Translations under genes and position numbers: made by a program | Origin: Massilicoli timonensis | GTDB lineage: Bacteria > Bacillota_I > Bacilli_A > Erysipelotrichales > Erysipelotrichaceae | Length of the DNA stretch: 32,000 nucleotides | NCBI RefSeq assembly: GCF_900199515.1 | Contig: NZ_LT963434.1 | Coordinates: 1,502,180 to 1,534,179 of the forward strand | Reading direction: 5' to 3' | Shown: positions 22 to 29,319 of the stretch, one piece after another | How the letters are laid out: the number at the start of each line of letters is the position of its first letter | Numbering within the stretch: the first letter of the stretch is position 1 | Notes under the pieces: model-generated | The model's input: only the letters and a program-made list of their open reading frames with translations | The model's database searches: none | Told to the model about the DNA's origin: nothing

Positions 22-915
22 ATGGAAAAGATCGTAGAAATTAAGGGATTATGCAAAAAATTCGGTAAGACTGAGGTACTGCATGACGTATCATTTGATA
101 TTTATGAAGATGAGATCGTCGGATTTATCGGACCAAACGGAGCCGGTAAAAGTACGACAATGAAATGTATGTGCAATCTGATCTTTCCAAGCGCAGGTAC
201 GATAAAGATATGCGGCTATGACATCGTAAAAGAAAGAGAAAAAGCATTGGCAAAACAGTCCTCGTTGATCGAAACTCCGGGATTGTTTCCAAATTTGACC
301 GGAAAAGAAAACATCGAATATTTTGCCTCTTATAAAAAAATACCGCAGTCTAAAATAGAAGAGATCATTCAATTCATGAATTTAGGCGATGGTCTTTACA
401 GACGAACCGCAAAATATTCACTGGGAATGAAACAGCGATTGGCGTTAGGGATCGCCTTGTTATCCGACCCGAAATTGTTGATCTTGGATGAACCGACCAA
501 CGGGCTGGATCCGGCAGGTGTATTTGACCTTAGAAATCAGTTAAAAACACTGGCAAAAGAAAAGCATGTATCCATACTGGTATCCTCTCATCAGTTAGGA
601 GAATTAGAGAAAATATCCGACCGCTATATTTGCATCAACAAAGGAAAGATCGTAGAAAATCCAAAGCAGATGAAAAATGACAGCTGCTATCACATTACAA
701 TGAAAAAAACAGAGCAAGTGGAAAAGTTGATGGAACAGGCAGCATCTGTCTACTCTTACACTTATCAGGAAAACGGATATGTCATACTGGTAAAAGAAAA
801 TCACAAAATACAGGATATTTTGCATTTATTTCAAAAAGAACAGATCGAATATGAGGACATCACGAAAAAAGTCATTGATATTGAAACCATGTATAGTGAA
901 CTATATGAGGCATGA
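22..915 (+). CDS. ABC transporter ATP-binding protein (ABC-2/CcmA-type NBD with C-terminal extension)
   Basis: 297-aa ORF. Walker A GPNGAGKST, signature SLGMKQRL, Walker B LLILDEPT, H-loop SSHQL. AGGAGGG lies upstream of the ATG. The stop overlaps the next start (ATGA at 912-915). Confidence 0.9.
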   Translation: MEKIVEIKGLCKKFGKTEVLHDVSFDIYEDEIVGFIGPNGAGKSTTMKCMCNLIFPSAGTIKICGYDIVKEREKALAKQSSLIETPGLFPNLTGKENIEYFASYKKIPQSKIEEIIQFMNLGDGLYRRTAKYSLGMKQRLALGIALLSDPKLLILDEPTNGLDPAGVFDLRNQLKTLAKEKHVSILVSSHQLGELEKISDRYICINKGKIVENPKQMKNDSCYHITMKKTEQVEKLMEQAASVYSYTYQENGYVILVKENHKIQDILHLFQKEQIEYEDITKKVIDIETMYSELYEA

Positions 916-2054
916 TCATGTTAAAGTTAGAATTGAAACGACTGTTTAAGAGTCCGAAAAATATAGGGGTCGTCTTCTGTATGATCGTGTTTTCGTTTTT
1001 TATCCTGTACCAGTTGAATGAAAAAAGAGTCGAATATGATGAAGTGCAGTTAAAGGAACTGTATGCGGCGAGTGCGATTGCCAAACAAGAAAAAGAACAA
1101 CTGAAATATGTAGAAGAAACGCCGGAAGTGGCAGAAGCAAATGAGTATTGGGATTTCGAGGGCAGATATGCCAGTTATCTGCGCGGAAAATTTAATCCTC
1201 TAAGCGATAAAGATATTTTTACGAAAGAAGAACGAACTACCCTTGAAAAAGATCGTTATCGGCACATATTAGATGCGTGGGATAAAGAATACAATAAGGC
1301 ATATTTGGAACTTGCCAAGACACAGAAGGAATTGAAAAAAGAAATCATATTGCGAGAGTATTTGTTGGGACATAAGATCGAGCAGTATGATACGCCGTAT
1401 GAAGTAAATACGATGAACTATTTAGTGAATTTCTTTCAATCACCGAATGTATTTGTCTTTCTGATTTTAATCGCATTTGCTTCGATCGATGTCATTACCA
1501 AGGATTTTGACTGTGATAGTTATAAACCGTTATATACGATGCCGGTTGCCAGAAAGAAAATTATTCGATCAAAGGTCGAAGCGGTATTGTTGTTTGCGCT
1601 GTTTGCGATTAGTGTTGCCATTCTCCTGCCGTCAGTTGCGGCCGCATGGATCGGTGGAACAGGAACTTTGGAATATCCGCAAGTGATGGAAGATTTCAGT
1701 ATATGGATCGCATTTGATTATGTGCTGAAATGTATGTTGATCTTGCTGGTATTGATTTTGTTTACGATTTCTGTCATTACTTTGGTATCTGTTTCTTTAA
1801 GAAACGGTACATCGGCAATGATGGCGATCGGTTCCTATTTCATTATTTTATATTGCATGAGTGAATTAGAACTTCGCTTCCCCAATGTTTTATACTATAT
1901 TCCGCTTTTCTCTGTTGATGTTGCTTATACCGTTAATGTCAAATACTTTTCGATCCTGCTGTTCAGTGTTTGTTCGCTGTTTATGATTATATTAAGCATC
2001 TGGGCGTCAGAAAGAGTAATTGAAACTGCGGATTTATCAGGAGGGGATGCGTAG
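912..2054 (+). CDS. polytopic membrane protein, probable ABC-2-type permease partner
   Basis: 380 aa. One N-terminal hydrophobic helix, a ~150-aa charged soluble segment, then about five hydrophobic helices. Translationally coupled to the NBD gene. An alternative ATG is at 918. Confidence 0.6.
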   Translation: MIMLKLELKRLFKSPKNIGVVFCMIVFSFFILYQLNEKRVEYDEVQLKELYAASAIAKQEKEQLKYVEETPEVAEANEYWDFEGRYASYLRGKFNPLSDKDIFTKEERTTLEKDRYRHILDAWDKEYNKAYLELAKTQKELKKEIILREYLLGHKIEQYDTPYEVNTMNYLVNFFQSPNVFVFLILIAFASIDVITKDFDCDSYKPLYTMPVARKKIIRSKVEAVLLFALFAISVAILLPSVAAAWIGGTGTLEYPQVMEDFSIWIAFDYVLKCMLILLVLILFTISVITLVSVSLRNGTSAMMAIGSYFIILYCMSELELRFPNVLYYIPLFSVDVAYTVNVKYFSILLFSVCSLFMIILSIWASERVIETADLSGGDA

Positions 2055-3424
2055 TGTTGAAAAGGATCAAATTAGGGATCTTATCATCATTACGCAGTAA
2101 AACAACGAAGATCGCCATGATCTGTGTTTTGATCTGTGAACTGCTGATGGTCTTTCATTTGGAGGAACGTGTAAGAGAAGAAAAGAAGGAGTATTATCAA
2201 AAGTATGTGAGTTTATATACTAAATTTTACAGAGATTTTTGGTATAAGGACCTGTATTATAGAAATGCGATACGTTTTTTAGGATTTGATGAACACGACA
2301 TCAGAAGAATGGATGAGGCGTTTGATTATTTATGTGAAGCAACTTCCAAAGCCGCTAAAGCAATAGAAGATGAAGATTATACGACCTTTTATCGAGAAAA
2401 TATCAAAGCCAATGTCCTATTGACAGATTCTATGGTTGCACAGGATCAGGAGATGTATTTGGAAACTGATGAGGACTTCTTTAAGAATATCGAGATCGTA
2501 GAAAAGATAAAGAAAGATTGGAACTTGCCTTATCATGATGTTCACCTTGGCTTAGGGGTATTCGATAAATTCTGGGCTCCTCAGTACATCTCCCAAACCC
2601 AATATTCCTATGAGATGTTAGAGAGAGGGATCGATGAACTATACACTCCAAGTTATCTGAACGGGAATACCGCGCTCTATCAATTCATCTATCATCTGTT
2701 TCCGATCCTTGTCTTATTGATCACCGTACTGCTCTACTATGATCAGTTTGCGAAAGAAAAGAGACAGGGAACGATCAAGAATCGGCTGACGCAGCCAAAT
2801 AAACGAATACGCTATCTCATGGAGAAGATCATCACGAATACAGCGACCATGCTCATCGTATTGCTTCTTCCCAGTTTATTATGTAATTTATTTGTGATCT
2901 GCTTAAATGGATTTGAGTTTCAAAACATACCGATCCTGGCATATCCAAAAGGGATCACAAGCTTCACATCATTACCGAATAATCTAACGGGAGAATACAC
3001 ACCGTTCTTACAGACGATGGGATTAACGCTTTATTCAGGGTTTCCGACATTGGAATACAATGCGCCGCACATAGCGATGGAGCTGATGGATTTTCATGTA
3101 TTCATGGGATATGTGAGTATGATGACAGTATTGTTCATCATCTTTCAGGTATTATTGAATCAGATGATCACGACCATGATAAATAATCCCTATTTAGGGA
3201 TGATCGTGAATTTAGGGATAGGGGGAATTTGTTATATCAATGCGGGGATAACGAATGTCAGTGAGATAGGGATGTGGAATCCATATTCCTATGCGAATCC
3301 GATCTTGAACTTAGCGGGGACATCCTATTACACATATGCAGAAGGGATCGTTATATTAGGAATCTACTGCATGATACTTTTTGGTGTGACTACACTGATC
3401 TTAAAGAAGAAAGATGTGATATAA
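2054..3424 (+). CDS. 456-aa polytopic membrane protein, tandem copy 1 (permease-like; one TM, ~190-aa soluble domain, ~6 TM)
   Basis: The GTG start overlaps the TAG of the upstream gene by 1 nt (taGTG). The 5' end carries more synonymous differences than copies 2-4. Its variable-cassette allele is KFYRDFWYKDLYYRNAIRF. Confidence 0.75.
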   Translation: MLKRIKLGILSSLRSKTTKIAMICVLICELLMVFHLEERVREEKKEYYQKYVSLYTKFYRDFWYKDLYYRNAIRFLGFDEHDIRRMDEAFDYLCEATSKAAKAIEDEDYTTFYRENIKANVLLTDSMVAQDQEMYLETDEDFFKNIEIVEKIKKDWNLPYHDVHLGLGVFDKFWAPQYISQTQYSYEMLERGIDELYTPSYLNGNTALYQFIYHLFPILVLLITVLLYYDQFAKEKRQGTIKNRLTQPNKRIRYLMEKIITNTATMLIVLLLPSLLCNLFVICLNGFEFQNIPILAYPKGITSFTSLPNNLTGEYTPFLQTMGLTLYSGFPTLEYNAPHIAMELMDFHVFMGYVSMMTVLFIIFQVLLNQMITTMINNPYLGMIVNLGIGGICYINAGITNVSEIGMWNPYSYANPILNLAGTSYYTYAEGIVILGIYCMILFGVTTLILKKKDVI

Positions 3425-3447
3425 AGACAGAAAGGAGGCGATCGAAG

Positions 3448-4818
3448 ATGTTGAAGAGAATTAAGCTAGGGATCTTATCCTCATTACGCAGTAAAACAAC
3501 GAAGATCGCCATGATCTGTGTTTTGATCTGTGAACTATTGATGGTCTTTCATTTGGAGGAACGTGCAAGAGAGGAAAAGAAGGAGTATTACCAAAAGTAT
3601 GTAAACTTATATACGAATTTTTATAGAAATTTCTGGTATAGGAAGTTGGATTATGACTATGCTACGAAGTTTTTAGGCTTTGATGAACACGACATCAGAA
3701 GAATGGATGAGGCGTTTGATTATTTATGTGAAGCAACTTCCAAAGCCGCTAAAGCAATAGAAGATGAAGATTATACGACCTTTTATCGAGAAAATATCAA
3801 AGCCAATGTCCTATTGACAGATTCTATGGTTGCACAGGATCAGGAGATGTATTTGGAAACTGATGAGGACTTCTTTAAGAATATCGAGATCGTAGAAAAG
3901 ATAAAGAAAGATTGGAACTTGCCTTATCATGATGTTCACCTTGGCTTAGGGGTATTCGATAAATTCTGGGCTCCTCAGTACATCTCCCAAACCCAATATT
4001 CCTATGAGATGTTAGAGAGAGGGATCGATGAACTATACACTCCAAGTTATCTGAACGGGAATACCGCGCTCTATCAATTCATCTATCATCTGTTTCCGAT
4101 CCTTGTCTTATTGATCACCGTACTGCTCTACTATGATCAGTTTGCGAAAGAAAAGAGACAGGGGACGATCAAGAATCGATTGATACAGCCAAAGAAACGA
4201 ATACGCTATCTCATGGAGAAGATCATCACGAATACGGCGACCATGATCATCGTATTGCTTCTTCCCAGTTTATTATGTAATTTATTTGTGATCTGCTTAA
4301 ATGGATTTGAGTTTCAAAACATCCCGATCCTGGCATATCCAAAAGGGATCACAAGCTTCACATCATTACCGAATAATCTAACGGGAGAATACACACCGTT
4401 CTTACAGACGATGGGATTAACGCTTTATTCAGGGTTTCCGACATTGGAATACAATGCGCCGCACATAGCGATGGAGCTGATGGATTTTCATGTATTCATG
4501 GGATATGTGAGTATGATGACAGTATTGTTCATCATCTTTCAGGTATTATTGAATCAGATGATCACGACCATGATAAATAATCCCTATTTAGGGATGATCG
4601 TGAATTTAGGGGTAGGGGGAATATGTTATATCAATGCGGGGATAACGAATGTTAGTGAGATAGGGATGTGGAATCCATATTCCTATGCGAATCCGATCTT
4701 GAACTTAGCGGGGACATCCTATTACACATATGCGGAAGGGATCGTCATATTAGGAATCTATTGCATGATACTTTTTGGTGTGACTACACTGATCTTAAAG
4801 AAGAAAGATGTGATATAA
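3448..4818 (+). CDS. 456-aa polytopic membrane protein, tandem copy 2
   Basis: ATG at 3448 preceded by AAAGGAGG (3431-3438). The 514-aa track ORF from 3274 is an alternate-frame run through the previous copy. Cassette allele NFYRNFWYRKLDYDYATKF. Confidence 0.8.
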   Translation: MLKRIKLGILSSLRSKTTKIAMICVLICELLMVFHLEERAREEKKEYYQKYVNLYTNFYRNFWYRKLDYDYATKFLGFDEHDIRRMDEAFDYLCEATSKAAKAIEDEDYTTFYRENIKANVLLTDSMVAQDQEMYLETDEDFFKNIEIVEKIKKDWNLPYHDVHLGLGVFDKFWAPQYISQTQYSYEMLERGIDELYTPSYLNGNTALYQFIYHLFPILVLLITVLLYYDQFAKEKRQGTIKNRLIQPKKRIRYLMEKIITNTATMIIVLLLPSLLCNLFVICLNGFEFQNIPILAYPKGITSFTSLPNNLTGEYTPFLQTMGLTLYSGFPTLEYNAPHIAMELMDFHVFMGYVSMMTVLFIIFQVLLNQMITTMINNPYLGMIVNLGVGGICYINAGITNVSEIGMWNPYSYANPILNLAGTSYYTYAEGIVILGIYCMILFGVTTLILKKKDVI

Positions 4819-4841
4819 AGACAGAAAGGAGGCGATCGAAG

Positions 4842-6212
4842 ATGTTGAAGAGAATTAAGCTAGGGATCTTATCCTCATTACGCAGTAAAACAACGAAGAT
4901 CGCCATGATCTGTGTCTTGATCTGTGAACTGCTGATGGTCTTTCATTTAGAGGAACGTGCAAGAGAGGAAAAGAAGGAGTATTATCAAAAGTATGTGAAC
5001 TTATATACGAATTACTACAGGGACTTTTGGTATAAAGATTCCTATTATAAACACGCTGTAGAATATCTGGGTTTCAATGAGGATGATATTAAGGTAATGG
5101 ATGAGGCGTTTGATTATTTATGTGAAGCAACTTCCAAAGCAGCTAAAGCAATAGAAGATGAAGACTATACGACCTTTTATCGAGAAAATATCAAAGCCAA
5201 TGTCCTATTGACAGATTCTATGGTTGCACAGGATCAGGAGATGTATTTGGAAACCGATGAGGACTTCTTTAAGAATATCGAGATCGTAGAAAAGATAAAA
5301 AAGGATTGGAACTTGCCTTATCATGATGTCCACCTAGGACTGTTAGTACTCGATAAATTCTGGGCGCCACAATACATCTCCCAAACCCAATATTCTTATG
5401 AGATGTTGGAAAGAGGGATCGATGAACTATACACTCCAAGTTATCTGAACGGGAATACCGCGCTCTATCAATTCATCTATCATCTGTTTCCGATCCTTGT
5501 CTTATTGATCACCGTACTGCTCTACTATGATCAGTTTGCGAAAGAAAAGAGACAGGGAACGATCAAGAATCGGCTGACGCAGCCAAATAAACGAATACGC
5601 TATCTCATGGAGAAGATCATCACGAATACAGCGACCATGCTCATCGTATTGCTTCTTCCCAGTTTATTATGTAATTTATTTGTGATCTGCTTAAATGGAT
5701 TTGAGTTTCAAAACATACCGATCCTGGCATATCCAAAAGGGATCACAAGCTTCACATCATTACCGAATAATCTAACGGGAGAATACACACCGTTCTTACA
5801 GACGATGGGATTAACGCTTTATTCAGGGTTTCCGACATTGGAATACAATGCGCCGCACATAGCGATGGAGCTGATGGATTTTCATGTATTCATGGGATAT
5901 GTGAGTATGATGACAGTATTGTTCATCATCTTTCAGGTATTATTGAATCAGATGATCACGACCATGATAAATAATCCCTATTTAGGGATGATCGTGAATT
6001 TAGGGGTAGGGGGAATATGTTATATCAATGCGGGGATAACGAATGTTAGTGAGATAGGGATGTGGAATCCATATTCCTATGCGAATCCGATCTTGAACTT
6101 AGCGGGGACATCCTATTACACATATGCGGAAGGGATCGTCATATTAGGAATCTATTGCATGATACTTTTTGGTGTGACTACACTGATCTTAAAGAAGAAA
6201 GATGTGATATAA
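4842..6212 (+). CDS. 456-aa polytopic membrane protein, tandem copy 3
   Basis: ATG at 4842 with the same 23-nt spacer and RBS. Cassette allele NYYRDFWYKDSYYKHAVEY, and GLLVLDKFW in place of GLGVFDKFW. Confidence 0.8.
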   Translation: MLKRIKLGILSSLRSKTTKIAMICVLICELLMVFHLEERAREEKKEYYQKYVNLYTNYYRDFWYKDSYYKHAVEYLGFNEDDIKVMDEAFDYLCEATSKAAKAIEDEDYTTFYRENIKANVLLTDSMVAQDQEMYLETDEDFFKNIEIVEKIKKDWNLPYHDVHLGLLVLDKFWAPQYISQTQYSYEMLERGIDELYTPSYLNGNTALYQFIYHLFPILVLLITVLLYYDQFAKEKRQGTIKNRLTQPNKRIRYLMEKIITNTATMLIVLLLPSLLCNLFVICLNGFEFQNIPILAYPKGITSFTSLPNNLTGEYTPFLQTMGLTLYSGFPTLEYNAPHIAMELMDFHVFMGYVSMMTVLFIIFQVLLNQMITTMINNPYLGMIVNLGVGGICYINAGITNVSEIGMWNPYSYANPILNLAGTSYYTYAEGIVILGIYCMILFGVTTLILKKKDVI

Positions 6213-6235
6213 AGACAGAAAGGAGGCGATCGAAG

Positions 6236-7606
6236 ATGTTGAAGAGAATTAAGCTAGGGATCTTATCCTCATTACGCAGTAAAACAACGAAGATCGCCAT
6301 GATCTGTGTTTTGATCTGTGAACTATTGATGGTCTTTCATTTGGAGGAACGTGCAAGAGAGGAAAAGAAGGAGTATTACCAAAAGTATGTAAACTTATAT
6401 ACGAATTTTTATAGAAATTTCTGGTATAGGAAGTTGGATTATGACTATGCTACGAAGTTTTTAGGCTTTGATGAACACGACATCAGAAGAATGGATGAGG
6501 CGTTTGATTATTTATGTGAAGCAACTTCCAAAGCCGCTAAAGCAATAGAAGATGAAGATTATACGACCTTTTATCGAGAAAATATCAAAGCCAATGTCCT
6601 ATTGACAGATTCTATGGTTGCACAGGATCAGGAGATGTATTTGGAAACTGATGAGGACTTCTTTAAGAATATCGAGATCGTAGAAAAGATAAAGAAAGAT
6701 TGGAACTTGCCTTATCATGATGTTCACCTTGGCTTAGGGGTATTCGATAAATTCTGGGCTCCTCAGTACATCTCCCAAACCCAATATTCCTATGAGATGT
6801 TAGAGAGAGGGATCGATGAACTATACACTCCAAGTTATCTGAACGGGAATACCGCGCTCTATCAATTCATCTATCATCTGTTTCCGATCCTTGTCTTATT
6901 GATCACCGTACTGCTCTACTATGATCAGTTTGCGAAAGAAAAGAGACAGGGAACGATCAAGAATCGGCTGACGCAGCCAAATAAACGAATACGCTATCTC
7001 ATGGAGAAGATCATCACGAATACAGCGACCATGCTCATCGTATTGCTTCTTCCCAGTTTATTATGTAATTTATTTGTGATCTGCTTAAATGGATTTGAGT
7101 TTCAAAACATACCGATCCTGGCATATCCAAAAGGGATCACAAGCTTCACATCATTACCGAATAATCTAACGGGAGAATACACACCGTTCTTACAGACGAT
7201 GGGATTAACGCTTTATTCAGGCTTTCCGACATTGGAATACAATGCGCCGCACATAGCGATGGAGCTGATGGATTTTCATGTATTCATGGGATATGTGAGT
7301 ATGATGACAGTATTGTTCATCATCTTTCAGGTATTATTGAATCAGATGATCACGACCATGATAAACAATCCCTATTTAGGGATGATCGTGAATTTAGGGA
7401 TAGGGGGAATTTGTTATATCAATGCGGGGATAACGAATGTCAGTGAGATAGGGATGTGGAATCCATATTCCTATGCGAATCCGATCTTGAACTTAGCGGG
7501 GACATCCTATTACACATATGCAGAAGGGATCGTCATATTAGGGGTCTACTGCATAATACTTTTTGGTGTAACTACACTGATCTTGAGAAAGAAAGATGTG
7601 GTGTAG
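6236..7606 (+). CDS. 456-aa polytopic membrane protein, tandem copy 4
   Basis: ATG at 6236 with the same spacer and RBS. The cassette is identical to copy 2. The C-terminal tail is unique (GVYCIILFGVTTLILRKKDVV). Confidence 0.8.
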   Translation: MLKRIKLGILSSLRSKTTKIAMICVLICELLMVFHLEERAREEKKEYYQKYVNLYTNFYRNFWYRKLDYDYATKFLGFDEHDIRRMDEAFDYLCEATSKAAKAIEDEDYTTFYRENIKANVLLTDSMVAQDQEMYLETDEDFFKNIEIVEKIKKDWNLPYHDVHLGLGVFDKFWAPQYISQTQYSYEMLERGIDELYTPSYLNGNTALYQFIYHLFPILVLLITVLLYYDQFAKEKRQGTIKNRLTQPNKRIRYLMEKIITNTATMLIVLLLPSLLCNLFVICLNGFEFQNIPILAYPKGITSFTSLPNNLTGEYTPFLQTMGLTLYSGFPTLEYNAPHIAMELMDFHVFMGYVSMMTVLFIIFQVLLNQMITTMINNPYLGMIVNLGIGGICYINAGITNVSEIGMWNPYSYANPILNLAGTSYYTYAEGIVILGVYCIILFGVTTLILRKKDVV

Positions 7607-7607
7607 C

Positions 7608-9371
7608 ATGAAAGGAATAACAGTTGTAAAAAATCTCCGGTTCGCGATGCGCTTCATCCTTGACACTTCTAAAAAAATTGTATGCTTTCGTATCATCTAT
7701 GCGATACTACAAGGCTTCTATACCGTTTATTCCCTTTTCGTATTAAGAATGATTTTACAGTTGATCTTTCAAGAAGCGAACTTAAAGCGATTAGCCATGA
7801 TCTTGCTTGTCCTGTTATTGATCAGCTTCCTGCTGGAATCCTTGTGTGATTATCTCATGACCTATCGCATTCCTCAGGAAGAACTAAAGGTCAGCAAAGC
7901 GATCGAAATCAAATTGTATGAGGCAATGTCGAAAAAACGGGCACAGGATCTGGAAGATCCCCATCAATACAATCATTTCTTTTTTGTGATCCAAAACGGG
8001 AAAGACAGTATTTTACAGTTATTGAACAGTTTTGCCGATTTGATTGCCGCAGTTGTTGCCATTACGGGGCTGAGTGCGCTGCTTGCCTCAAGCGATCTGA
8101 TGATCATCTGTTTCGTATTGATTTATCTGGCTGTTTCTTTACTGATCGATCTGCTTATTTCAAGAAACACCTATCAGAAAAATCATGCCCTGATCAAACC
8201 GAACCGCCGTTTAGATTATGTGAACCGCATCTTCTACTTGAAGCAGTACCATCTTGAATTAAAAGTGTTCCCGCTCTTACAGGCGTTAAAAGAACAGCTG
8301 CATCACTGGTATGAGGAAAAAAGCGCAATTCAAGATCAATATCATCGCAAAGCAGTCTGCTATCATATGATGAAAATTTTGATCAGTTTGTTCTTTCAGC
8401 TGAGCACGATTCTGTATATCGCCTATCTCGTATTGCGGGAAGTGATTGCGAAAAGCGATTTTTTGGTGCTTTATAATGGGACAAGCGAATTGAGCGACAA
8501 CTTAAAGCTGCTCTTTCAATATATACCGGTTTTTTATGAGAACGGTCTTTACATAGGTGAAATCAAAGATTTTCTTGCGCCTGTTGCGAAAAAACAAAAG
8601 TATCGAGAAGCGATCCGTGAAATCGAATTGCAAGATGTCAGCTTTACTTATCCATTATGTGAAACGCCGGCGCTGCATGCGATCAATTACCGGTTTCATC
8701 AAAACAGTTATGCGATCGTAGGGATGAATGGATCGGGAAAAACGACTTTGGCAAAAGTGATCGGGATGGTGTTTGACGAGGCAAAAGGAAAAAGGATCGT
8801 CAATGGGAGAATGCTTGATGAAGCAATATATTTAGATCAGGTCAGTTATATTTTTCAGGATTATCAGGTTTATGCGCTTACGATCGCGGAAAATATTTTG
8901 ATGCGCCCGCTTCAAAACAATGATGATGTGCGAAAGGTGGAGGAAATCCTGAAAAAAGTCAATCTGTACGATAAAGTCATGGGCTTGCCGCATACGATCT
9001 ACACGGAAATGACGACCGAGTTTCAGGAAGAGGCGACAATGTTTTCGGGCGGGGAATTGCAAAAACTGGCGCTTGGCAGGGCGATCGCCAAAGACTGTAC
9101 GGTTCTGATCTTAGATGAGCCATCCAGTGCTTTGGATACCACCGCTGAATATGAGTTTATGAAGCTGGTAAAGGAACTGGGGAAAGATAAGATCCTAATT
9201 TATATCACACATAAATTAGATAAATTGATGCTGTTTGATCAAGTGCTCTGCATGAAAGAGGGAACGATCATAGAAAGCGGCGCTTATGAGGATCTGATTC
9301 AGAAAAAAGGCTATCTCTATTCGCTAACTGCCGCTTCCAAGGGGTTGCAGGAAATCACTAAAAATCAGTAA
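7608..9371 (+). CDS. fused ABC transporter permease/ATP-binding protein (exporter-type half transporter)
   Basis: N-terminal ~330-aa hydrophobic TMD, then an NBD with Walker A GMNGSGKTT, signature FSGGELQKLALGRA and Walker B VLILDEPSSALD. ATG at 7608 lies 1 nt after the copy-4 stop. An alternative ATG at 7596 has no clear SD. Confidence 0.85.
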   Translation: MKGITVVKNLRFAMRFILDTSKKIVCFRIIYAILQGFYTVYSLFVLRMILQLIFQEANLKRLAMILLVLLLISFLLESLCDYLMTYRIPQEELKVSKAIEIKLYEAMSKKRAQDLEDPHQYNHFFFVIQNGKDSILQLLNSFADLIAAVVAITGLSALLASSDLMIICFVLIYLAVSLLIDLLISRNTYQKNHALIKPNRRLDYVNRIFYLKQYHLELKVFPLLQALKEQLHHWYEEKSAIQDQYHRKAVCYHMMKILISLFFQLSTILYIAYLVLREVIAKSDFLVLYNGTSELSDNLKLLFQYIPVFYENGLYIGEIKDFLAPVAKKQKYREAIREIELQDVSFTYPLCETPALHAINYRFHQNSYAIVGMNGSGKTTLAKVIGMVFDEAKGKRIVNGRMLDEAIYLDQVSYIFQDYQVYALTIAENILMRPLQNNDDVRKVEEILKKVNLYDKVMGLPHTIYTEMTTEFQEEATMFSGGELQKLALGRAIAKDCTVLILDEPSSALDTTAEYEFMKLVKELGKDKILIYITHKLDKLMLFDQVLCMKEGTIIESGAYEDLIQKKGYLYSLTAASKGLQEITKNQ

Positions 9372-9577: not shown

Positions 9578-9625
9578 AGACTTGTATGAAAACATGTGAT
9601 AAGCAGGAGGAAAAGGAGGCTGGCT

Positions 9626-11296
9626 ATGTTTAAGACAGATTTGGAAATCGCGCAGGAATGCGTGATGGAACCGATCACGGAAATTGCGAAAAAAGCAGGC
9701 ATATCCGAAGAAGATCTGGAAGTGTATGGAAAGTATAAGGCAAAGGTTTCATTAGATGTCCTGAAAAAAAGAGCAGAAGAACCGGATGGGAAACTGATCT
9801 TAGTAACGGCGATCAATCCGACCAAGGCCGGAGAAGGGAAATCAACGACAACGGTCGGTTTGGCAGATGGATTCAGAAGACTGGGAAAAAAAGCAATGGT
9901 TGCTTTGCGTGAACCGTCCCTAGGACCGGTTTTCGGCTTAAAAGGCGGTGCGGCAGGCGGCGGCTATGCGCAGGTCGTGCCGATGGAGGATATCAACTTA
10001 CATTTTACCGGGGATATGCATGCGATCACGACTTGCAATAATCTGATCAGCGCTTGCTTAGACAATCATATCCATCAGGGAAATGCGTTAGATATTGATG
10101 TGAATGCGGTCGTTTGGAAACGTGTGCTGGATATGAACGATCGCAGTCTGCGCCAGATCGAGATCGGTTTAGGACCGAAGGCAAATGGCGTGGAACGCAA
10201 AGACGGATTTAATATTACGGTTGCCAGTGAAGTAATGGCGATCTTATGTCTTTCTCATTCTTTGATGGATCTAAAAGAAAGACTGGGCAATATCCTGATC
10301 GCCTATAATACGAAAAAAGAGCCGATCTATGCAAAAGATCTGGGAATTGCCGGTGCCCTTGCGATGATCATGAAAGATGCGATCAAGCCGAATTTGGTGC
10401 AGACGCTGGAACATACGCCGGTGCTGATTCACGGCGGACCGTTTGCCAATATCGCGCATGGCTGTAATTCTGTTTTAGCGACCAAGACTTGTCTGAAGCT
10501 GGCTGATTATGTGATTACGGAAGCGGGCTTCGGCGCTGATTTAGGCGCGGAAAAGTTTTTAGATATCAAATGCCGTTTAGCGGATCTGCATCCAAGCGCA
10601 GTGGTCATCGTGGCGACCATTCGGGCATTGAAGCAGCATGGCGGGGTCAGCTTTGAAGAACTGAAGGAAGAAAATGTCGATGCGATGATAGCGGGATGTG
10701 CCAATCTGGCAAAACACATTGAGACCATTCAGGCATTTGGCTTGCCATATGTAGTAGCGATCAATGAATTTGCGACGGATACGCCGGCAGAAGTGGCAGC
10801 GTTAGAAAACTGGTGCAAAGAGCATGGGCATCCGATGGCGTTGTCACAAGTTTGGGCAAAAGGCGGCGCCGGAGCGGAAATGCTTGCGCAGGAAGTGCTG
10901 CGGCTATGTGAGGAAGAAAACCACTATCATCCGATTTACGATGTGGAAGAAAGTATCGAAGATAAGATCTTTAAGATCGCTTCCACTTGTTATGGCGCAG
11001 GCAGTGTCGTTTACAGCGAGGAGGCAAAGGAACAGATTGCGATGTATCAAAAGCGCGGCTGGGATAAACTGCCGATCTGTATGGCAAAGGTTCCGACTTC
11101 TTTAAGCGATCAAGCGACGCTTTACGGTGCACCGAAAGATTTTGCGATCACGGTCCGAGAATTTCGTCCATCGCTTGGCGCGGGCTTTATCGTAGCTTTG
11201 ACCGGCAGTGTGATGACGATGCCGGGTCTTCCGAAGCATCCGGCGGCCAATAATATGGATATTGATGAAGATGGTCATATCGTAGGATTATTCTAA
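9626..11296 (+). CDS. fhs: formate--tetrahydrofolate ligase
   Basis: 556 aa starting [12 protein letters not shown]-loop-like [14 protein letters not shown] and family-typical [25 protein letters not shown] and [20 protein letters not shown] is 7 nt upstream of the ATG at 9626. The track ORF start at 9596 is rejected. Confidence 0.95.
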
Positions 11297-14737: not shown

Positions 14738-14973
14738 AAAATACATCTTTTGCTTAGGTTTCTTTACAAAGGCATAATCATAAATCACAACAAAAACCGA
14801 GCCAACCTACACTAAAACGTCGCTTTTTTCGAGGAAAAGGCGGCGTTTTTTCATGGCCCGGTTTTGGAAAGGAGTGGTGCTGACTTTATACTAAAACGAA
14901 AGGGGGAATTTTTTTAGCTGGCCGGGCCGGGAGGTCTGGCCTTTTTTCATCTCACGAAAAAGGAGGTTAGCCA

Positions 14974-16515
14974 ATGGCAGATGAAAAAGTAAACGTGAGC
15001 CCGGAGGAAAAGAAAGCCCCGGAAGCTCCGGCCCCGTCCGGGCCGGGCGATCCGCCTGCGCCGAAGCACACCGAGGGGCCCGCTGTCCCTGGTGGAGATC
15101 AGACGGCCCCCGCTCATGTGGAGCCCGCCATGCCGGAAAAAACGGAGGGGCCCATCAAGCCAGAGCAGTCTGTTATCCCTGGTATGGGTGAGGACACTCC
15201 CGCACCGTCCAGCAAGGTGATCAACCTCTCGGACATCCAGGCCGCTGATAAGGGCGGTAAGGAGGCTTCTACTCCCACTCTGGAAAAGAAAGCGCCGGAG
15301 GCGGATAAGCCGCCGAAGCGCCGGGGCCGTCCGCCGAAGGAGCAGGCCGGGCCGACTGTGGAGAAAAAGTCGAAAGCGGCGGAGCCCCGCACAGGCCGCC
15401 CGTCTAAGGTTGACAAGGCGGCCCGTGAGGAGGCTCCGCCCTCTGTTCGGGACAAAGTGTCCAGAGGTAAGAAAGCCGACAAGGGCAAGGAAACGGGTTC
15501 CGGCGGTGCGCCTGCGTCTAAATCCGCTAAGACGGTAAAGCCGGGCAAGGCCGCTCCCGTCAAGGAGGCGGCAGTCCCGCCGCCGGAGATTAAACTGCCG
15601 CCCACGCCGGAGGTGCCGCCCCGCCCGGTGGAAGAGGGAAAAATCGTCTATTTGAAGATGTCGGAGCTCCATCCGTTCCACACGTTCCGGGAACACCCCT
15701 ACAAGGTGCAGGACGATAAGGCGATGGACGATCTGGTGGGGACGATCAAGGAACACGGCATTATGACCCCCGCCACCGTCCGCCCGGAAAAGGACGGCAA
15801 GGGCTATGAGATTATCGCGGGCCACCGCCGCCATCATGGTGGTGCGCGGGCCGGGCTGGAGGAAATGCCCTGTATCGTCCGGGAGATGACTGACCTTGAA
15901 GCTGTCCGGGAAATGCGGAACAGCAACAAACAGCGCGGCGATCCGCTCCCCAGCGAGCTGGCAAAGCTCCTGGATTTGGAGGTGGAGGCCATCAAACGCC
16001 AGGGGGCCCGCCCGAAAACGGAGAAAGAGGCCGAGGCCCTTGGTAAGCTCTCGGTGGAGATCGTTGGCAAGGATCACGACATGAACTATAAAAAGGTCAT
16101 GCGGTATATCCGGCTCAACTCCTTGGTGCCGGAGCTTCTGGACAAGGTGGACGCAAAGCAGATGGGCTTTATGCCTGCGGTGGAGATCTCGTATATCAGG
16201 CCGGAAAACCAGCGGCTGATTGCCGTTTCCATTGACGGGGAGCAGTCCTCCCCCTCGGTGGCCCAGGCGAAGCGGCTCCACGAGCTGGACAAGGAGGGCA
16301 AGCTCAACGGCGATGTGATTGACGGTATTTTGAGCGAAGAAAAAAAGGAGGATCGCGGTGTGATTATTTCGACTGCTGAACTGTCTAAGTATTTCGGCAA
16401 GGAGGTCACTCCTGCCAAAATGAAGGAGCAGATCATGGCTCTGCTGGACGAGTGGAAAGAGAAACAGCCGCCCGAACTGGCGAAGCCGGACAAGAAAAAG
16501 GACTTGGAGAAGTAA
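14974..16515 (+). CDS. ParB/Srx-like nuclease-domain protein with a long Pro/Lys/Ala-rich N-terminal extension
   Basis: 513 aa. AGGAGG is 7 nt upstream. ParB N-terminal domain motifs LHPFHTFREHPYKV and YEIIAGHRRHHG. The first ~210 aa are low complexity. Confidence 0.85.
   Translation: MADEKVNVSPEEKKAPEAPAPSGPGDPPAPKHTEGPAVPGGDQTAPAHVEPAMPEKTEGPIKPEQSVIPGMGEDTPAPSSKVINLSDIQAADKGGKEASTPTLEKKAPEADKPPKRRGRPPKEQAGPTVEKKSKAAEPRTGRPSKVDKAAREEAPPSVRDKVSRGKKADKGKETGSGGAPASKSAKTVKPGKAAPVKEAAVPPPEIKLPPTPEVPPRPVEEGKIVYLKMSELHPFHTFREHPYKVQDDKAMDDLVGTIKEHGIMTPATVRPEKDGKGYEIIAGHRRHHGGARAGLEEMPCIVREMTDLEAVREMRNSNKQRGDPLPSELAKLLDLEVEAIKRQGARPKTEKEAEALGKLSVEIVGKDHDMNYKKVMRYIRLNSLVPELLDKVDAKQMGFMPAVEISYIRPENQRLIAVSIDGEQSSPSVAQAKRLHELDKEGKLNGDVIDGILSEEKKEDRGVIISTAELSKYFGKEVTPAKMKEQIMALLDEWKEKQPPELAKPDKKKDLEK
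15447..15467. repeat. palindrome GGACA-aag-TGTCCAGAGG (copy inside the parB-like gene)
   Basis: Shares GTCCAGAGGTAAG (13 nt) with the 16540-16552 copy. The central triplet is the complement of that in the other copies. Confidence 0.6.
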
Positions 16516-16525
16516 CCCGGCCCCG

Positions 16526-16548
16526 CTTCTGGACACTTTGTCCAGAGG
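16526..16548. repeat. 23-bp element CTTCTGGACACTTTGTCCAGAGG (10-bp stem, CTT loop), copy 1
   Basis: Identical 23-mer at 17873-17895. It starts 11 nt after the parB-like stop and has no U-tract. Confidence 0.8.
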
Positions 16549-16581
16549 TAAGCGCCCCGCGCTTGGGATGGGCTCTGTGGT

Positions 16582-16724
16582 GATATATCCCCCGTCGCCG
16601 CCTATATTCCTGCACAGCCGGGAGTGGGCCGTCAAGGGTGCAACGCACCGCCGCTCGCGGCGGCTTGCCCTTGACGGTCTGCCCCGGCTGTGCTACTTCC
16701 AGCGGCGCGGCGGGGGTATATATC
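16582..16724. promoter_or_regulatory. ~145-nt nested imperfect palindrome (candidate oriT, ssDNA promoter or structured RNA)
   Basis: Concentric stems: 16648-16653/16658-16663 (6 bp), 16629-16638/16668-16677 (10 bp), 16612-16622/16683-16693 (11 bp) and ~16582-16602/~16701-16724 (bulged). An internal bubble sets TATATTCC opposite TACTTCC. Confidence 0.6.
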
Positions 16725-16810
16725 CTCCAGAGCCGCCCCCTTTCCCTGGATAGGGAAAGGGCGGGGGGATAGGGTCGAACTACCTATTATAAATATCGGA
16801 GGTGTTGAAG

Positions 16811-17152
16811 ATGAAACGATCCCTTGCTTATATTACCGCCGCATGGCGCGGCGATCCTGCGGTGGACATGGAACAGGCGGCGCATTTCTGCCGTGTGGTC
16901 TACGATGCGGGCTATTCCCCCATCTGCCCCATGCTCTATCTGCCGCTGTTCCTCAATGACGCGGTGCCGGAGGAGCACAAGAACGGCATCGACATGGGCC
17001 GTGACCTGCTCCGGCGTTCCCGTGTGCTGGTGGTGTGCGGCCATACCATCACCGAGTCCATGAAAAATGATATTGCCGTGGCCCAGCGGCTGGGGATCAC
17101 CGCTACCACCCTTGAGGGCATCCTGACCGTCAAAGGCCAGGGCCGCCGCTGA
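16811..17152 (+). CDS. DUF4406-like (nucleoside 2-deoxyribosyltransferase-like fold) protein; family assignment from memory
   Basis: 113 aa from MKRSLAYITAAWRGD. GGAGG is 8 nt upstream of the ATG at 16811. The stop lies 1 nt before the ardA ATG. Confidence 0.55.
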   Translation: MKRSLAYITAAWRGDPAVDMEQAAHFCRVVYDAGYSPICPMLYLPLFLNDAVPEEHKNGIDMGRDLLRRSRVLVVCGHTITESMKNDIAVAQRLGITATTLEGILTVKGQGRR

Positions 17153-17153
17153 T

Positions 17154-17867
17154 ATGGCGTCCCTGTTTGAAGCCTACATCACCAACCTGGGAAAATACAA
17201 CGAGGGCGAGCTGGTCGGTGAAACCTTGAAATTCCCCACTACCACGGAGGAGGTGCAGGGACTTCTGAAACGCATCGGCGTGGACGGGGTGCGGTATGAG
17301 GAATTTTTCATCACCAGCTTTGACGGTGATGTGCTGGGGCTCTATGACTATCTCACGGAATATGAAAACCTGGACGAGCTCAATCATCTGGCCTGCCTAC
17401 TCTCCGAGCTGGAGCAAAGCGACTTGGAGAAGTTTGAAGCGGTCATTGACAGCGGCGAACATACTTCCAGCGTGGCTGACCTCATCAATCTGGCGCAAAA
17501 CTTGGATTGCTACGAGTTTTATCCCGGTGTGGAGGACGATGAAACCCTGGGCCGCATTTATGTGGAGGATATGGAGGCCATTGACATTCCCGATCACCTG
17601 CTCCCTTACTTCGATTATGAAGCATACGGGCGGGACGTGCGGATCAACGAGGACGGCCACTTTGCCCCCGGCGGCTATGTGCTGAACAACGGCGGCAAAT
17701 TCATCGAGCACTACCACGGGATCGAGGACATTCCCGCCGAGCATAAGGTTTTCGCGTTCCCGCAGCTCTCGGTGCGGGAGCAGATGGCGGCCTACAAAGA
17801 AATTATTGACGGCTCCTCTCTGGAGGGCTATCGGAAGATTGCCAAAAAGGAGCACGAGGAGCGATAG
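17154..17867 (+). CDS. ardA: ArdA-family antirestriction protein
   Basis: 237 aa, highly acidic. The N-terminus AYITNLGKYNEGELVGETLKFP is typical of ArdA. Common in leading regions of Firmicutes conjugative elements. Confidence 0.85.
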   Translation: MASLFEAYITNLGKYNEGELVGETLKFPTTTEEVQGLLKRIGVDGVRYEEFFITSFDGDVLGLYDYLTEYENLDELNHLACLLSELEQSDLEKFEAVIDSGEHTSSVADLINLAQNLDCYEFYPGVEDDETLGRIYVEDMEAIDIPDHLLPYFDYEAYGRDVRINEDGHFAPGGYVLNNGGKFIEHYHGIEDIPAEHKVFAFPQLSVREQMAAYKEIIDGSSLEGYRKIAKKEHEER

Positions 17868-17872
17868 CGGCA

Positions 17873-17904
17873 CTTCTGGACACTTTGTCCAGAGGCGCTT
17901 TTTT
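17873..17904 (+). terminator. 23-bp element copy 2 plus T-run (terminator-like)
   Basis: CTTCTGGACA-ctt-TGTCCAGAGG followed by cgc and T6. It starts 6 nt after the ardA stop. Confidence 0.5.
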
Positions 17905-17993
17905 CACGGAAAGGAGGGATACGGCTGATTGATGAGGACGTTTCCAGACGTACCATAGCAGTTTCCATTAAGGCGACAAAGCTCACGGGCCGG

Positions 17994-18401
17994 GTGCTGG
18001 CCCAGGCGTGTCTGGCGGTGGGCCGGAAAATCAAGAAAGCGCACCGGGCCCGCCAGACACCCCACGGCAAACAGACGGTGCGCCAGCTCATGGGCCACGG
18101 GGCCGCCACGAACAGCATCGAGGTGGAGTCCCCAAAGGACTTTGACCGGGTGGCTCGGAAATGGAATGTGGACTATGCCTTTTATAAAACCGGGCCGGAC
18201 AAGTACCTGCTGTTTTTCAAAAGTGGGCAGGCCGATGCCATCACCGCTTGTTTTTCGGAATATTCCCGGCGCGTGATGAAGCGTTCCAAGTCCCGGCGCG
18301 TCCCGATCCGGGAACAGCTCAAACGGGCCGCCGCTGAACTGGCCCGCCAGCCGTCCCACAAGAAAGAACGTGCAAGGGAGGCGGTGCATGAGGACAGATA
18401 G
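17994..18401 (+). CDS. PcfB/DUF3801-like conjugation accessory protein (5' end probably extends to ~17925)
   Basis: 135 aa from GTG 17994. The same frame is open from 17868 and encodes family-like ...TIAVSIKATKLTGRVLAQ upstream. AAGGAGGG sits at 17911-17918 with no canonical start after it. Confidence 0.6.
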   Translation: MLAQACLAVGRKIKKAHRARQTPHGKQTVRQLMGHGAATNSIEVESPKDFDRVARKWNVDYAFYKTGPDKYLLFFKSGQADAITACFSEYSRRVMKRSKSRRVPIREQLKRAAAELARQPSHKKERAREAVHEDR

Positions 18402-19377
18402 CGTCAAGAAATATGTAATACCCAACATCCCGTACCTGTTTATCCTGTGGGCCTGCCTAAAGCTGGGGACGGCCTACCGCCTGGCTCCCGGAGCGGACTT
18501 TGCTCACAAGCTGATGGGCCTGGGCCAGAGCATCGGCCCGGCCTTTGCCGACTTTGCGCCGGGGCTCCATCCCCTTGACTGGCTCATCGGCATTGTGGGC
18601 GCGGTAGGCTTCCGCCTGCTGATCTACTTCAAAAGCAAGAACGCAAAGAAATTCAGACGGGATGAAGAATACGGGTCGGCCCGCTGGGGGACAGAAAAGG
18701 ACATCAAGCCCTTTATCGATCCAAAGTTTGAGAACAACGTCATTTTGACAAAGACGGAGTTTCTCACCATGAACACCCGGCCCAAAAATCCGGCCAACGC
18801 CCGCAATCTCAACGCCTGCATCATCGGCTCGTCCGGTTCGGGCAAAACCCGCTTCTGGCTCACTCCGCAGATTTTGCAGGCCAGCGCGGATAAAAACGGC
18901 GGATGCAGCTATGTGTGCGTCGATCCGAAAGGCGGGGTGCTCTCTCAGGTGGGAGCTTTCCTGCAACGCCGGGGATATAAGGTCAAAGTGTTCAACAGCA
19001 TAGATTTTTCAAAATCCATGCACTACAATCCGCTGTCCTACATCCACAACGAAGCGGACATCCTTAAATTTGTGGACACTCTCATAGCAAATACAAAGGG
19101 CGAGGGCAAGGAGGGCGATCCGTTTTGGACAAAGGCAGAAACGCTCCTTTATTGTGCGTTGATTGCCTATATTATCTTTGAAGCTCCTGCCGAGGATCGG
19201 AACATCAATACCCTGGTGGACATGATTTCCGGCATGGACGTGAAAGAGGATGACGAGTCCTATATGAACGCGGTGGACTATATGTTCAAGGGCCTGGAAA
19301 AGCGCAAGCCGGATTGCTTTGCCGTGAAGCAGTACAAAAAATATAAGCTGGCCAGCGGAGATGTATGCTCTAAGTGA
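18388..19377 (+). pseudogene. VirD4/TraG-type type IV coupling protein, 5' portion only (interrupted by insertion)
   Basis: N-terminal TM helices and Walker A IIGSSGSGKTRF. The family-like sequence ends at ...KQYKKYKLA, then a 7-codon foreign tail (SGDVCSK) and a stop. About 329 aa are present, against the ~600 aa I recall for this family. No 3' half occurs in any frame of the window. Confidence 0.8.
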
Positions 19378-19428
19378 CTTCTTAATCATGGTTTTTGTCA
19401 TGGTTAGTGAAGCAGTCACTTAGAGCAT
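19365..19428. repeat. 14-bp perfect inverted repeat ATGCTCTAAGTGAC / GTCACTTAGAGCAT with a 36-bp spacer
   Basis: Arms at 19365-19378 and 19415-19428. The spacer contains TCATGG twice. It is followed by TTTCATTTC and then the recombinase RBS. Confidence 0.85.
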
Positions 19429-19450
19429 TTTCATTTCAGGAGGTACAGCC

Positions 19451-21331: not shown

Positions 21332-21357
21332 CCGTCACAGTGCAAAGGAGGACGAAC

Positions 21358-21711
21358 ATGAACAAATTGACTTACACCCGCTGCGGGGATTACTACATCC
21401 CCGACCTGAAACTTTCCGAGCAGCCGGAGGCCCCCATCGGCAAGTATGGCCGTATGCGGCAACGCTACCTGAAGGAACACCGGCCCGGCCTTTACAGCAG
21501 CTTGGCTTTGAGCGAAAAGCTGTACCCGCACCTGTTGGAGATTGACCGGGCGGCGCGAGAGCGGATAGACGCCATGCTGCCCCGCATGATGGAGGCGGCA
21601 GGCGTCACCGAGGAACTGAAAGCCCATGACCCTATGCGCTGGGTGGGGCTGATGAACACGCTGAAAGCGCAGGTGGAGGAAATTATTTTTCAAGAACTTA
21701 TATTTGTTTGA
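21358..21711 (+). CDS. tnpV: TnpV-like transposon protein
   Basis: 117 aa from MNKLTYTRCGDYYIPDL. IGKYGRMRQRYLKEHRP and HLLEIDR resemble TnpV of Tn4451/Tn4453 (from memory). AAAGGAGGA is upstream of the ATG at 21358. Confidence 0.7.
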   Translation: MNKLTYTRCGDYYIPDLKLSEQPEAPIGKYGRMRQRYLKEHRPGLYSSLALSEKLYPHLLEIDRAARERIDAMLPRMMEAAGVTEELKAHDPMRWVGLMNTLKAQVEEIIFQELIFV

Positions 21712-22843: not shown

Positions 22844-22894
22844 TGATATTGTAGCACATACCTGTTGTTTTCACAAGGTAAAGGAGGTGAAAAT

Positions 22895-23617: not shown

Positions 23618-23636
23618 ATGGGAAGGAGGCATGAGA

Positions 23637-25118: not shown

Positions 25119-25135
25119 AAAAGGAGTGTGTCGCT

Positions 25136-25735: not shown

Positions 25736-25757
25736 GCGGTAAAAGGAGTTGAAAATT

Positions 25758-29308: not shown

Positions 29309-29319
29309 GAGAAATATTT

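Follow-up and report, generated by a model that had tools for sequence, protein, structure and literature searches.

The stretch of the Massilicoli timonensis type-strain genome analyzed here (contig NZ_LT963434.1, positions 1,502,180 to 1,534,179; the whole 32,000-nt stretch is hereafter called the window) raises the question of why one transporter operon should contain four head-to-tail, near-identical copies of a gene for a 456-amino-acid (aa) ATP-binding cassette (ABC) permease, referred to below as permease 2. An earlier note on this DNA had explained the repetition by a very recent amplification or ongoing gene conversion, perhaps as a dosage or variation mechanism under selection. Comparison of the copies with one another and with those of other strains gives a different answer. 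The array is old, and unequal crossing-over changes the number of its copies (1–4) and reshuffles their order; gene conversion and between-strain recombination keep the transmembrane body near-identical within a genome; and an 87-nt cassette escapes this homogenization and persists as five conserved, deeply diverged types (A, B, B′, C and D). The copies are probably alternative subunits of a peptide immunity/export transporter, and the explanation as a whole carries moderate confidence.

Listing of open reading frames (ORFs), repeat finding and direct comparison agree on four ORFs of 1371 nt between window positions 2054 and 7606, and the start-to-start distance is 1394 nt throughout, exactly the period claimed before (Table 1). 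Because this exact four-fold period is accompanied by 94–98% identity (26–81 differing sites between pairs over the 1371-nt gene), a chance origin of the array is excluded. The three internal 23-nt spacers are identical (AGACAGAAAGGAGGCGATCGAAG) and include a Shine-Dalgarno sequence (AAAGGAGG). The atypical edges of the array that had been described are also real: copy 1 has no spacer, its GTG start shares one base with the upstream TAG (TA[G]TG), and its seven private changes in nt 1–33 consist of the A-to-G change that makes GTG and six synonymous ones, and copy 4, whose tail is its own from nt 1308 onward, overlaps the ATG of the next gene at 7596. The description of the 3′ ~800 nt as almost identical is roughly right, as the 1394-nt unit has 125 variable sites and only 16 of them lie in nt 571–1307, with 81 in nt 1–570 and 28 in the tail and spacer. 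A detail absent from that description is the block-wise, mosaic arrangement of the differences. Copy 3 stands apart at nt 75–570 and copy 2 at nt 717–876; at nt 1165–1314 copies 1 and 4 agree with each other against copies 2 and 3; no difference separates copies 2 and 4 across nt 1–716; and the tail of copy 4 (nt 1301–1371) is that of the type-D copy in a metagenomic contig, L002. Because the spacer resembles the downstream flank (…GTAGCATGAAAGGA…) followed by the upstream flank (AGGAGGGGATGCGTAGTG…), it may represent the founding duplication junction, which its sequence suggests is a hybrid of the two flanks joined at a microhomology near AGGA. In a hand alignment, the junction region (spacer and start) has since diverged from the upstream flank at ~10/30 nt.

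Table 1. Positions of the transporter genes, their parts and the candidate peptide gene. Positions are those of the window unless a contig is named.
Feature	Position	Strand	Remarks
ABC ATPase, first gene of the ABC-2 module	22–915	+	297 aa; PF00005, E 5.9e-33
Permease 1, ABC-2 type, single copy	912–2054	+	380 aa; PF12679, E 1.2e-14
Permease 2, copy 1	2054–3424	+	456 aa; cassette type A; GTG start overlaps upstream stop
Cassette core, copy 1	2221–2307	+	Gene nt 168–254; 87 nt; codons 56–85
Permease 2, copy 2	3448–4818	+	Cassette type B; private variants at nt 717–876
Permease 2, copy 3	4842–6212	+	Cassette type C; 15 nt differences from copy 1 of L002, nearly the same allele
Permease 2, copy 4	6236–7606	+	Type B as assembled; terminal tail; 5′ 716 nt as in copy 2
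Equivalent cassettes, copies 2–4	3615–3701, 5009–5095, 6403–6489	+	
23-nt spacers with Shine-Dalgarno AAAGGAGG	3425–3447, 4819–4841, 6213–6235	+	
Fused transmembrane-nucleotide-binding domain ABC exporter	7596–9371	+	591 aa (ATG 7596) or 587 aa (ATG 7608); PF00005
Formate-tetrahydrofolate ligase (fhs)	9596–11296		Downstream of exporter
Candidate 55-aa precursor	L001:6298–6465, L003:6295–6462, L004:7328–7495, L005:7327–7494		Just upstream of window position 1

The age of the array can be read from the way in which variation is distributed along the gene. In the alignment of copies, amino-acid variation is concentrated at residues 53–85 and falls into discrete types, so that every one of the 27 full copies has a 34-aa peptide that matches one of five exactly (type A, 12 copies; C, 8; B′, 4; B, 2; D, 1). 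The same types recur with 0/34 amino-acid differences in ~20 independent contigs, at differing array positions, and the sites diagnostic for A, for C and for B and B′ pooled are confined to gene nt 168–254. Nucleotide diversity over nt 141–260 is 0.4–0.7% within A and within C, and 5.0% within the pool in which B and B′ are mixed, against 17–34% between types; in nt 1–140 and 717–1300 between-type diversity equals within-type diversity, the latter being 4–6% in nt 1–140. By the Nei-Gojobori method, the synonymous divergence (dS) of the cassettes is ≥0.95 or undefined, that is, saturated, and their nonsynonymous divergence (dN) is 0.16–0.25. The transmembrane body has a dS of 0.02–0.09 and a dN/dS of 0.05–0.19, and the between-strain dS baseline set by the ATPase, permease 1, exporter and fhs genes is 0.00–0.08 (0–0.04 for permease 1). 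Because the dS of the cassette is saturated and that of the body is at strain level, the array must be old, and it has been homogenized while retaining this short segment. In type D the residues at aa 122–170 form another variable patch, and a recombinant (P0018) that joins cassette D to the common downstream segment separates the two patches of this type.

Opposite genealogies of body and cassette are seen within the window itself. For body segments, each window copy finds its closest match in another window copy, with 0 differences in several segments, and for the cassette segment in a copy of another strain, again with 0 differences. A GENECONV-style permutation test detects significantly long concordant tracts, at the minimum p, in 33 of the 91 copy pairs. 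Paralogs that are more alike within a genome than orthologous positions are between genomes, conversion tracts and variable copy number are the marks of concerted evolution, and all three are present; together with the diverged array edges, they uphold the part of the earlier note that invoked unequal crossover and ongoing gene conversion.

Copy number was compared at the orthologous locus, defined by the same flanking genes, and in about 20 independent contigs it takes values of 1 to 4. The window has the arrangement A-B-C-B, and the isolate GCA_024462795.1 (L003) has three copies, A-C-B′. The following contigs are metagenomic: three copies, B′-B′-B′, are found in L001; at least three, ?-C-A, in L010 and L011; two, C-D, in L002; at least two in L012, L015, L017 and L019; and a single copy in L005 (A) and L018 (C). 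Related genomes uniformly carrying four well-diverged paralogs, the pattern that the earlier note had set against its own reading, are thus not what is observed, as both the number and the order of copies are fluid across strains.

These comparisons also bear on whether a one- or two-copy locus was recently expanded by unequal crossover and selected for more permease, its copies being equivalent. Such an expansion would account for copies 2 and 4 being 100% identical over 796 nt, for the three copies of L001, which differ from one another at only 13–21 sites and share one cassette type, and for the differences in copy number between strains. It is nevertheless very unlikely to be the explanation, because a recent selected amplification should consist of near-identical copies private to one strain. 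Instead, the window holds three distinct old cassettes with saturated dS, these cassettes are found unchanged in other strains, and multi-cassette arrays occur in two isolates and several metagenomes. Extra transmembrane domains (TMDs) without an extra ATPase or permease 1 would, moreover, not obviously raise transporter dosage, and the identity of copies 2 and 4, the strongest hint of recency, may be an assembly artefact. On the same evidence, and given arrays in many strains, neither very recent amplification nor dosage amplification under selection can be kept as the main story. For genome scans the locus carries a caution: tandem-copy identity that was read as recency belongs here to a homogenized old array, and an assembly error may account for some of it.

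The type-strain genome rests on short MiSeq reads, both paired-end and mate-pair, which were put together by means of Velvet, SPAdes, SOAPdenovo and GapCloser (PMC6796691). No N occurs in the window, and the identical tracts between copies measure 796, 755, 594 and 592 nt. Because three distinct haplotypes are present at each gene end, at least three copies are guaranteed; the fourth copy and the phasing rest on short-read linkage, and copy 4 may be mis-assembled. It is quite possible that the assembled order A-B-C-B is wrong, the true copy 4 being of type D, or the array having five copies, and that the 5′ half of copy 4 was filled in from copy 2. In favour of this are the use of short reads with GapCloser, the 796- and 755-nt identical tracts, which exceed the read length, and a three-haplotype model that accounts for every variant site. 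A partial protein, P0017 (WP_146003285.1), encoded on an 835-bp M. timonensis contig at NCBI, covers the N-terminal 211 aa of a copy of type D; it has a RefSeq accession only, as type-strain proteins do, with a number older than the 2022 isolate. On its right side, the array also resembles the C-D-exporter arrangement of L002, in that the tail of copy 4 is the D tail of L002 and the exporter dS is 0.005. However, the 835-bp contig may belong to another assembly, mate-pair data may have resolved the array correctly, and the outcome would look no different if copy 2 had converted copy 4 naturally. If the orphan contig does come from the same assembly, the assembled array may be incomplete. An error of this kind is compatible with an old, homogenized array and would take away what most strongly hints at a very recent duplication. 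As a separate observation, the species description gives a genome of 3,118,584 bp with 53.0% GC (PMC6796691), compared with the 2,090,366-bp contig here and a window of 38–50% GC, and these figures may not be those of this genome.

Permease 2 is the third gene of a type V (ABC-2) module composed of the ATPase, permease 1 and permease 2. All four copies match PF12679 (ABC2_membrane_2) with 42.1–45.6 bits, above the gathering cutoff of 27.2, and the ATPase gene lies on the same strand and adjoins that of permease 1, as expected of the cognate ATPase of an ABC-2 module. The best NCBIfam match of the ATPase is the lantibiotic-protection ABC ATPase family TIGR03740, with 199.7 bits, under the cutoff of 309.75, and its scores for the Pmt equivalogs are also below their cutoffs (PmtC, 162.9 against 375; PmtA, 106 against 350). 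The nearest solved nucleotide-binding domains (NBDs) are those of ABCA3/7/1, PmtC (1.6e-37) and NosF. Because a Shine-Dalgarno sequence precedes every internal copy, and a search of the array for terminator-like sites revealed none on the coding strand, co-expression of the copies is probable. The exporter gene that follows overlaps or abuts the last copy, and its MsbA-, CydC- and bacteriocin-ABC-like NCBIfam matches are all below cutoff.

The AlphaFold2 model of permease 2, built from 59 sequences (pLDDT 85.7, pTM 0.88), shows an N-terminal helix, a helix of the first transmembrane segment (TM1) that extends to residue 63, a helical domain of ~170 residues and, from TM2 at about residue 207, the other TM helices. 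Because the N-terminus is rich in Lys and Arg, the positive-inside rule would place it in the cytoplasm and the helical domain outside. The top Foldseek matches in the PDB are NosY, followed by ABCH/ABCG (probability ≤1.00, E 0.045 or weaker), and the target-normalized TM-score of 0.52–0.59 against NosY is a moderate match to the type V TMD fold. None of the structural matches offers a solved counterpart of the helical ectodomain. By sequence, the solved chains nearest to the permease-2 profile are NosY and PmtD (E 0.0017–0.0023 for PmtD). In the model, the cassette spans the end of helix 16–63, helix 66–76 and the start of helix 80–105, and would thus lie in the membrane-distal part of the extracytoplasmic TM1-TM2 domain. 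Aromatic and hydrophobic positions of the cassette are kept across types and the positions between them vary, and all 27 full copies are intact ORFs.

Relatives outside the species are distant. A word-indexed homolog search returned two 90% clusters only, and an exhaustive HMMER search returned 136 cluster representatives, which outside the species all have ≤32% identity. Relatives at ~20–30% identity have a gene set of one ATPase, one ~380-aa and one ~450–470-aa protein, and the third gene is single-copy in the three distant loci (L007–L009). Because each of these loci carries one, the triad is taken to be the ancestral unit, of which only the third gene was multiplied in M. timonensis. The unusual stoichiometry pointed out in the earlier note is accordingly softened: the operon contains more than one permease type and one NBD gene, with the distinct 380-aa permease encoded between the ATPase and the array and the fused TMD-NBD exporter after it, and it is an otherwise conserved triad that has been extended by copies of one member. 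Permease 1 was considered as a distant paralog of permease 2 and rejected, as BLASTP finds no similarity between it and the 456-aa protein. A plasmid or phage origin was likewise rejected, tblastn having found no match among 72,556 plasmids or 50,697 phage records. In one of the distant loci (L007:1309–6567; 29% identity, HMMER), the triad lies beside a formate-tetrahydrofolate ligase gene, on the opposite side, and without a radical S-adenosylmethionine (SAM) cluster.

Such a cluster is found just upstream of the ATPase gene in L001, L003, L004 and L005. It encodes a radical-SAM/SPASM enzyme whose best match is CcpM (TIGR04068; E 2e-124, 416 against a cutoff of 500) and which also matches the RumMC and PapB maturases, a TIGR04066-like protein (E 3e-33, 115.2 against a cutoff of 200), an acyl carrier protein-like protein with a weak match to TIGR04069 (18.6 against a cutoff of 70), and a 55-aa Cys-containing ORF, beginning MLKKVNKATLMTTEIAPKATCYCKATCFGP…, for which no NCBIfam model was matched at E ≤ 0.01. 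Because the best matches are all under the equivalog cutoffs, the cluster is a relative of the CcpM system and not a member of it. The 55-aa ORF is the candidate precursor peptide, and it is sharply polymorphic: L003 and L004 have 30 differences over 4.2 kb, of which 27 are in its last ~75 nt. Among database relatives there are four types (P1–P4), in which the leader and the Cys motif are identical and 6–11 differences fall within residues 32–53; the C-terminal 25 residues are the region that distinguishes them, and the type of the window strain differs from those of the other loci. The precursor has a C-x-C-x3-C motif ahead of a possible acceptor region. ABC transporters are common in sactipeptide clusters, in which the donor Cys residues are located upstream of the acceptors (PMC8172795); because of this order, the layout of the candidate precursor appears to fit the sactipeptide arrangement. 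The block from the upstream ABC exporter to the downstream exporter has 34–44% GC, and most flanking genes have 43–50% GC. A 49-aa variant of the precursor (P0159) lacks the six residues CYCKAT.

Because the transporter module shares this low-GC island with a sactipeptide-like cluster and lies directly downstream of the polymorphic candidate precursor, it is proposed to be the producer's peptide immunity/export pump, which would expel peptide in the manner of LanFEG or PmtCD. Each permease-2 variant would pair with the single permease 1 and an ATPase dimer, and the result would be transporter isoforms distinguished solely by the membrane-distal part of the helical extracytoplasmic domain. The cassette would contribute to which peptide variants are recognized, and the array would set the breadth of peptide recognition. 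Recognition of peptide substrates by ABC-2 immunity/export pumps is poorly understood, and the locus is a natural experiment in this respect, as its subunits are near-identical apart from one exposed segment of 30 residues and occur in strains making four peptide variants. If the link to the peptide is true, a specificity determinant would be pinpointed, and shuffled tandem subunits would be a new way of building an immunity repertoire. A more specific form of the proposal, which we regard as doubtful, is that the array is a modular cross-immunity repertoire in which cassettes A, B/B′, C and D each tune a shared chassis of ATPase and permease 1 to one or some of the peptide types P1–P4. Unequal crossing-over would then let strains gain, lose and reorder specificities, and a bacteriocin-immunity arms race would be conducted via alternative ABC subunits, not dedicated immunity proteins.

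Several points weigh against the proposal that the copies are alternative subunits of such a pump. The function of the transporter is putative throughout, and pairing of permease 1 with permease 2 as a heterodimer is an assumption drawn from gene order and the start/stop overlap of their genes. Peptide type and cassette show no one-to-one relation in the five loci that reveal both (P3 with A-B-C-B; P1 with B′-B′-B′, with A and with A-?; P2 with A-C-B′). Because the distant triads lack a radical-SAM cluster, the module is not obligatorily tied to peptides made by the ribosome and modified post-translationally (RiPPs). The placement of the cassette at the membrane-distal tip is judged from the lengths of helices in the model, not from coordinates, in a region with a local pLDDT of 66–74, and positive selection is not demonstrable because the cassette dN/dS is <1 with saturated dS. 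The contigs with one or few copies are from short-read metagenomes and could be collapsed assemblies, to which the possible mis-assembly of copy 4 is to be added.

Some of these points would equally suit cassettes that are leftovers of old paralogs or of imported DNA and that persist because their divergence blocks conversion, the extra copies being redundant. Sequence divergence of 17–34%, as found between cassette types, itself hinders recombination, and a dN/dS below 1 and the absence of a peptide-to-cassette correlation in five loci would be expected of such relics. We consider a neutral origin of this kind unlikely. It does not explain why each type shows no difference in 34 amino acids, or why nucleotide diversity in A and C is so much lower than in the adjacent nt 1–140; nor does it explain the intactness of every one of the 27 copies, the retention of aromatic and hydrophobic positions amid varying ones, or the second sharp island of divergence in the peptide gene of the same locus. 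A variable patch on an extracytoplasmic domain, with variants that are discrete and old, also recalls surface receptors, at which discrete old variants are typical of balancing selection. The ectodomain could on this account be the receptor of a phage or a foreign bacteriocin, with diversity and shuffling of cassettes allowing escape from recognition. This is hardly credible, because carrying several variants together does not remove the receptor, no phage or defence context was found around the locus, and the adjacent peptide gene has diversified in parallel, which points to a link with the peptide.

Active diversification of the cassette was also considered. A diversity-generating retroelement or programmed cassette switching was rejected, as no reverse transcriptase domain is present in the window proteins or the locus gene calls, many variable sites lack A in any copy (for example, sites 144, 186, 199, 226 and 243), and the discrete types are common to several strains.

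The proposed role of the module as a peptide immunity/export pump is in keeping with known systems in part. It resembles LanFEG (NisFEG, SpaFEG) in having an ABC-2 ATPase and two different permeases in a RiPP cluster beside a separate exporter, in the best NCBIfam match of its ATPase, a lantibiotic-protection family, and in the role proposed here, that of expelling the cell's own peptide. It differs in that its ATPase falls short of the score required for membership in TIGR03740, and in its permeases: LanE and LanG are ~250 aa long and have no large ectodomain, whereas the permeases here have 380 and 456 aa, with a TM1-TM2 loop of ~170 aa. No LanFEG system is known to us in which one permease forms an array of variable copy number. 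PmtABCD/PmtCD of Staphylococcus is a type V ABC-2 exporter of phenol-soluble modulins that also protects its producer. PmtD is among the solved chains closest to the permease profile, and PmtC matches the ATPase, but the similarity is limited to ~70 TMD residues, the scores are below cutoff, and Pmt has no ectodomain, paralog array or radical-SAM peptide. Among the type V transporters NosFY (of NosDFY), ABCA, ABCG and ABCH, the best structural matches share the TMD fold; the ATPase is closest to ABCA NBDs, and a large extracytoplasmic domain between TM1 and TM2 is the ABCA layout. However, the Foldseek E-values are no better than 0.045, the ectodomain has no solved counterpart, and the substrates and partners of these transporters are unrelated.

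The staphylococcal agr groups, the pneumococcal blp/com pherotypes and the orphan immunity arrays of contact-dependent inhibition (CDI), Rhs and colicin systems likewise have a short, diverged, discrete segment in conserved flanks, which is paired with a polymorphic secreted peptide, and their gene content varies among strains. Their variable partner is a receptor kinase or a small immunity protein, whereas the candidate partner here is the ectodomain cassette of a tandemly multiplied ABC permease, and any cognate pairing is putative. The upstream genes find their best family matches in the CcpM (TIGR04068/04066/04069) and RumMC clusters, although all family scores are below cutoff and the 55-aa ORF matches none of the models; the C-x-C-x3-C motif of the precursor resembles the Cys22/Cys24 hairpin donors of RumC (PMC8172795). 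The locus is best described as a combination of known kinds, an ABC-2 peptide immunity/export module and a concerted-evolution array that preserves specificity-like cassettes. The literature yielded no precedent for tandem or concerted-evolution permease arrays in bacteriocin loci, which, as coverage was incomplete, is weak evidence of novelty.

Some further observations concern the array and its gene calls. In L001 a variant 70-nt spacer (L001:11372–11441) replaces the 23-nt one before the last copy and gives a spacing of 1441 nt; the same 70-nt spacer precedes the last copy in L010, L011, L012, L015 and L017, and its final ~18 nt, with the Shine-Dalgarno sequence, are retained. Tandem Repeats Finder reports an 18-nt unit repeated 2.2 times (ATTTAGGGATGAGCGGGA) in copies 1 and 4 (3192–3230 and 7374–7412); the corresponding region of copies 2 and 3 differs at two sites and is under the score threshold of the program. 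The 514-aa ORFs at 3274, 4668 and 6062 are not genes, but read-through from upstream in-frame GTG codons inside the preceding copy. The idea that the 435-aa database members are all first-position copies proved wrong; they are gene-caller truncations at Met22 and come from several array positions.

Between the peptide and transporter genes of L001, a GC-rich hairpin (TAGGGGGAG…CTCCCCCTA; L001:6466–6574) follows the precursor ORF, without a T-run and ~70 nt before the ATPase start, and may be an attenuator or an RNA-stabilizing element. On the minus strand of the same contig (L001:1874–3319), divergent from the radical-SAM gene, a 45-aa ORF with a signal-peptide-like N-terminus (MKKVVLAALSCFIFTIAFTSTTVFANDGDPVPAPYCTGPNCHYID) adjoins a 414-aa protein that matches no NCBIfam model, and the 45-aa ORF may encode a second secreted peptide.

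Farther downstream, window positions 14947–21711 hold a strain-specific mobile-element fragment that encodes a ParB_N-domain protein, the ArdA antirestriction protein, TnpV, a 335-aa fragment of a type IV secretion system coupling protein and a 626-aa large serine recombinase (19451–21331); where the window has this element, DUF5662 is followed in other strains by VanZ or a histidine kinase. We do not link the recombinase to the array, as the element is ~12 kb away, strain-specific and absent from the other strains. Beyond it, positions 22865–29691 contain an energy-coupling factor-type module (a CbiQ-like T component, a duplicated ATPase and a Trep_Strep membrane protein), together with two paired half-transporters of ABC_membrane/ABC_tran type (607 and 579 aa) and a repressor of the DtxR family.

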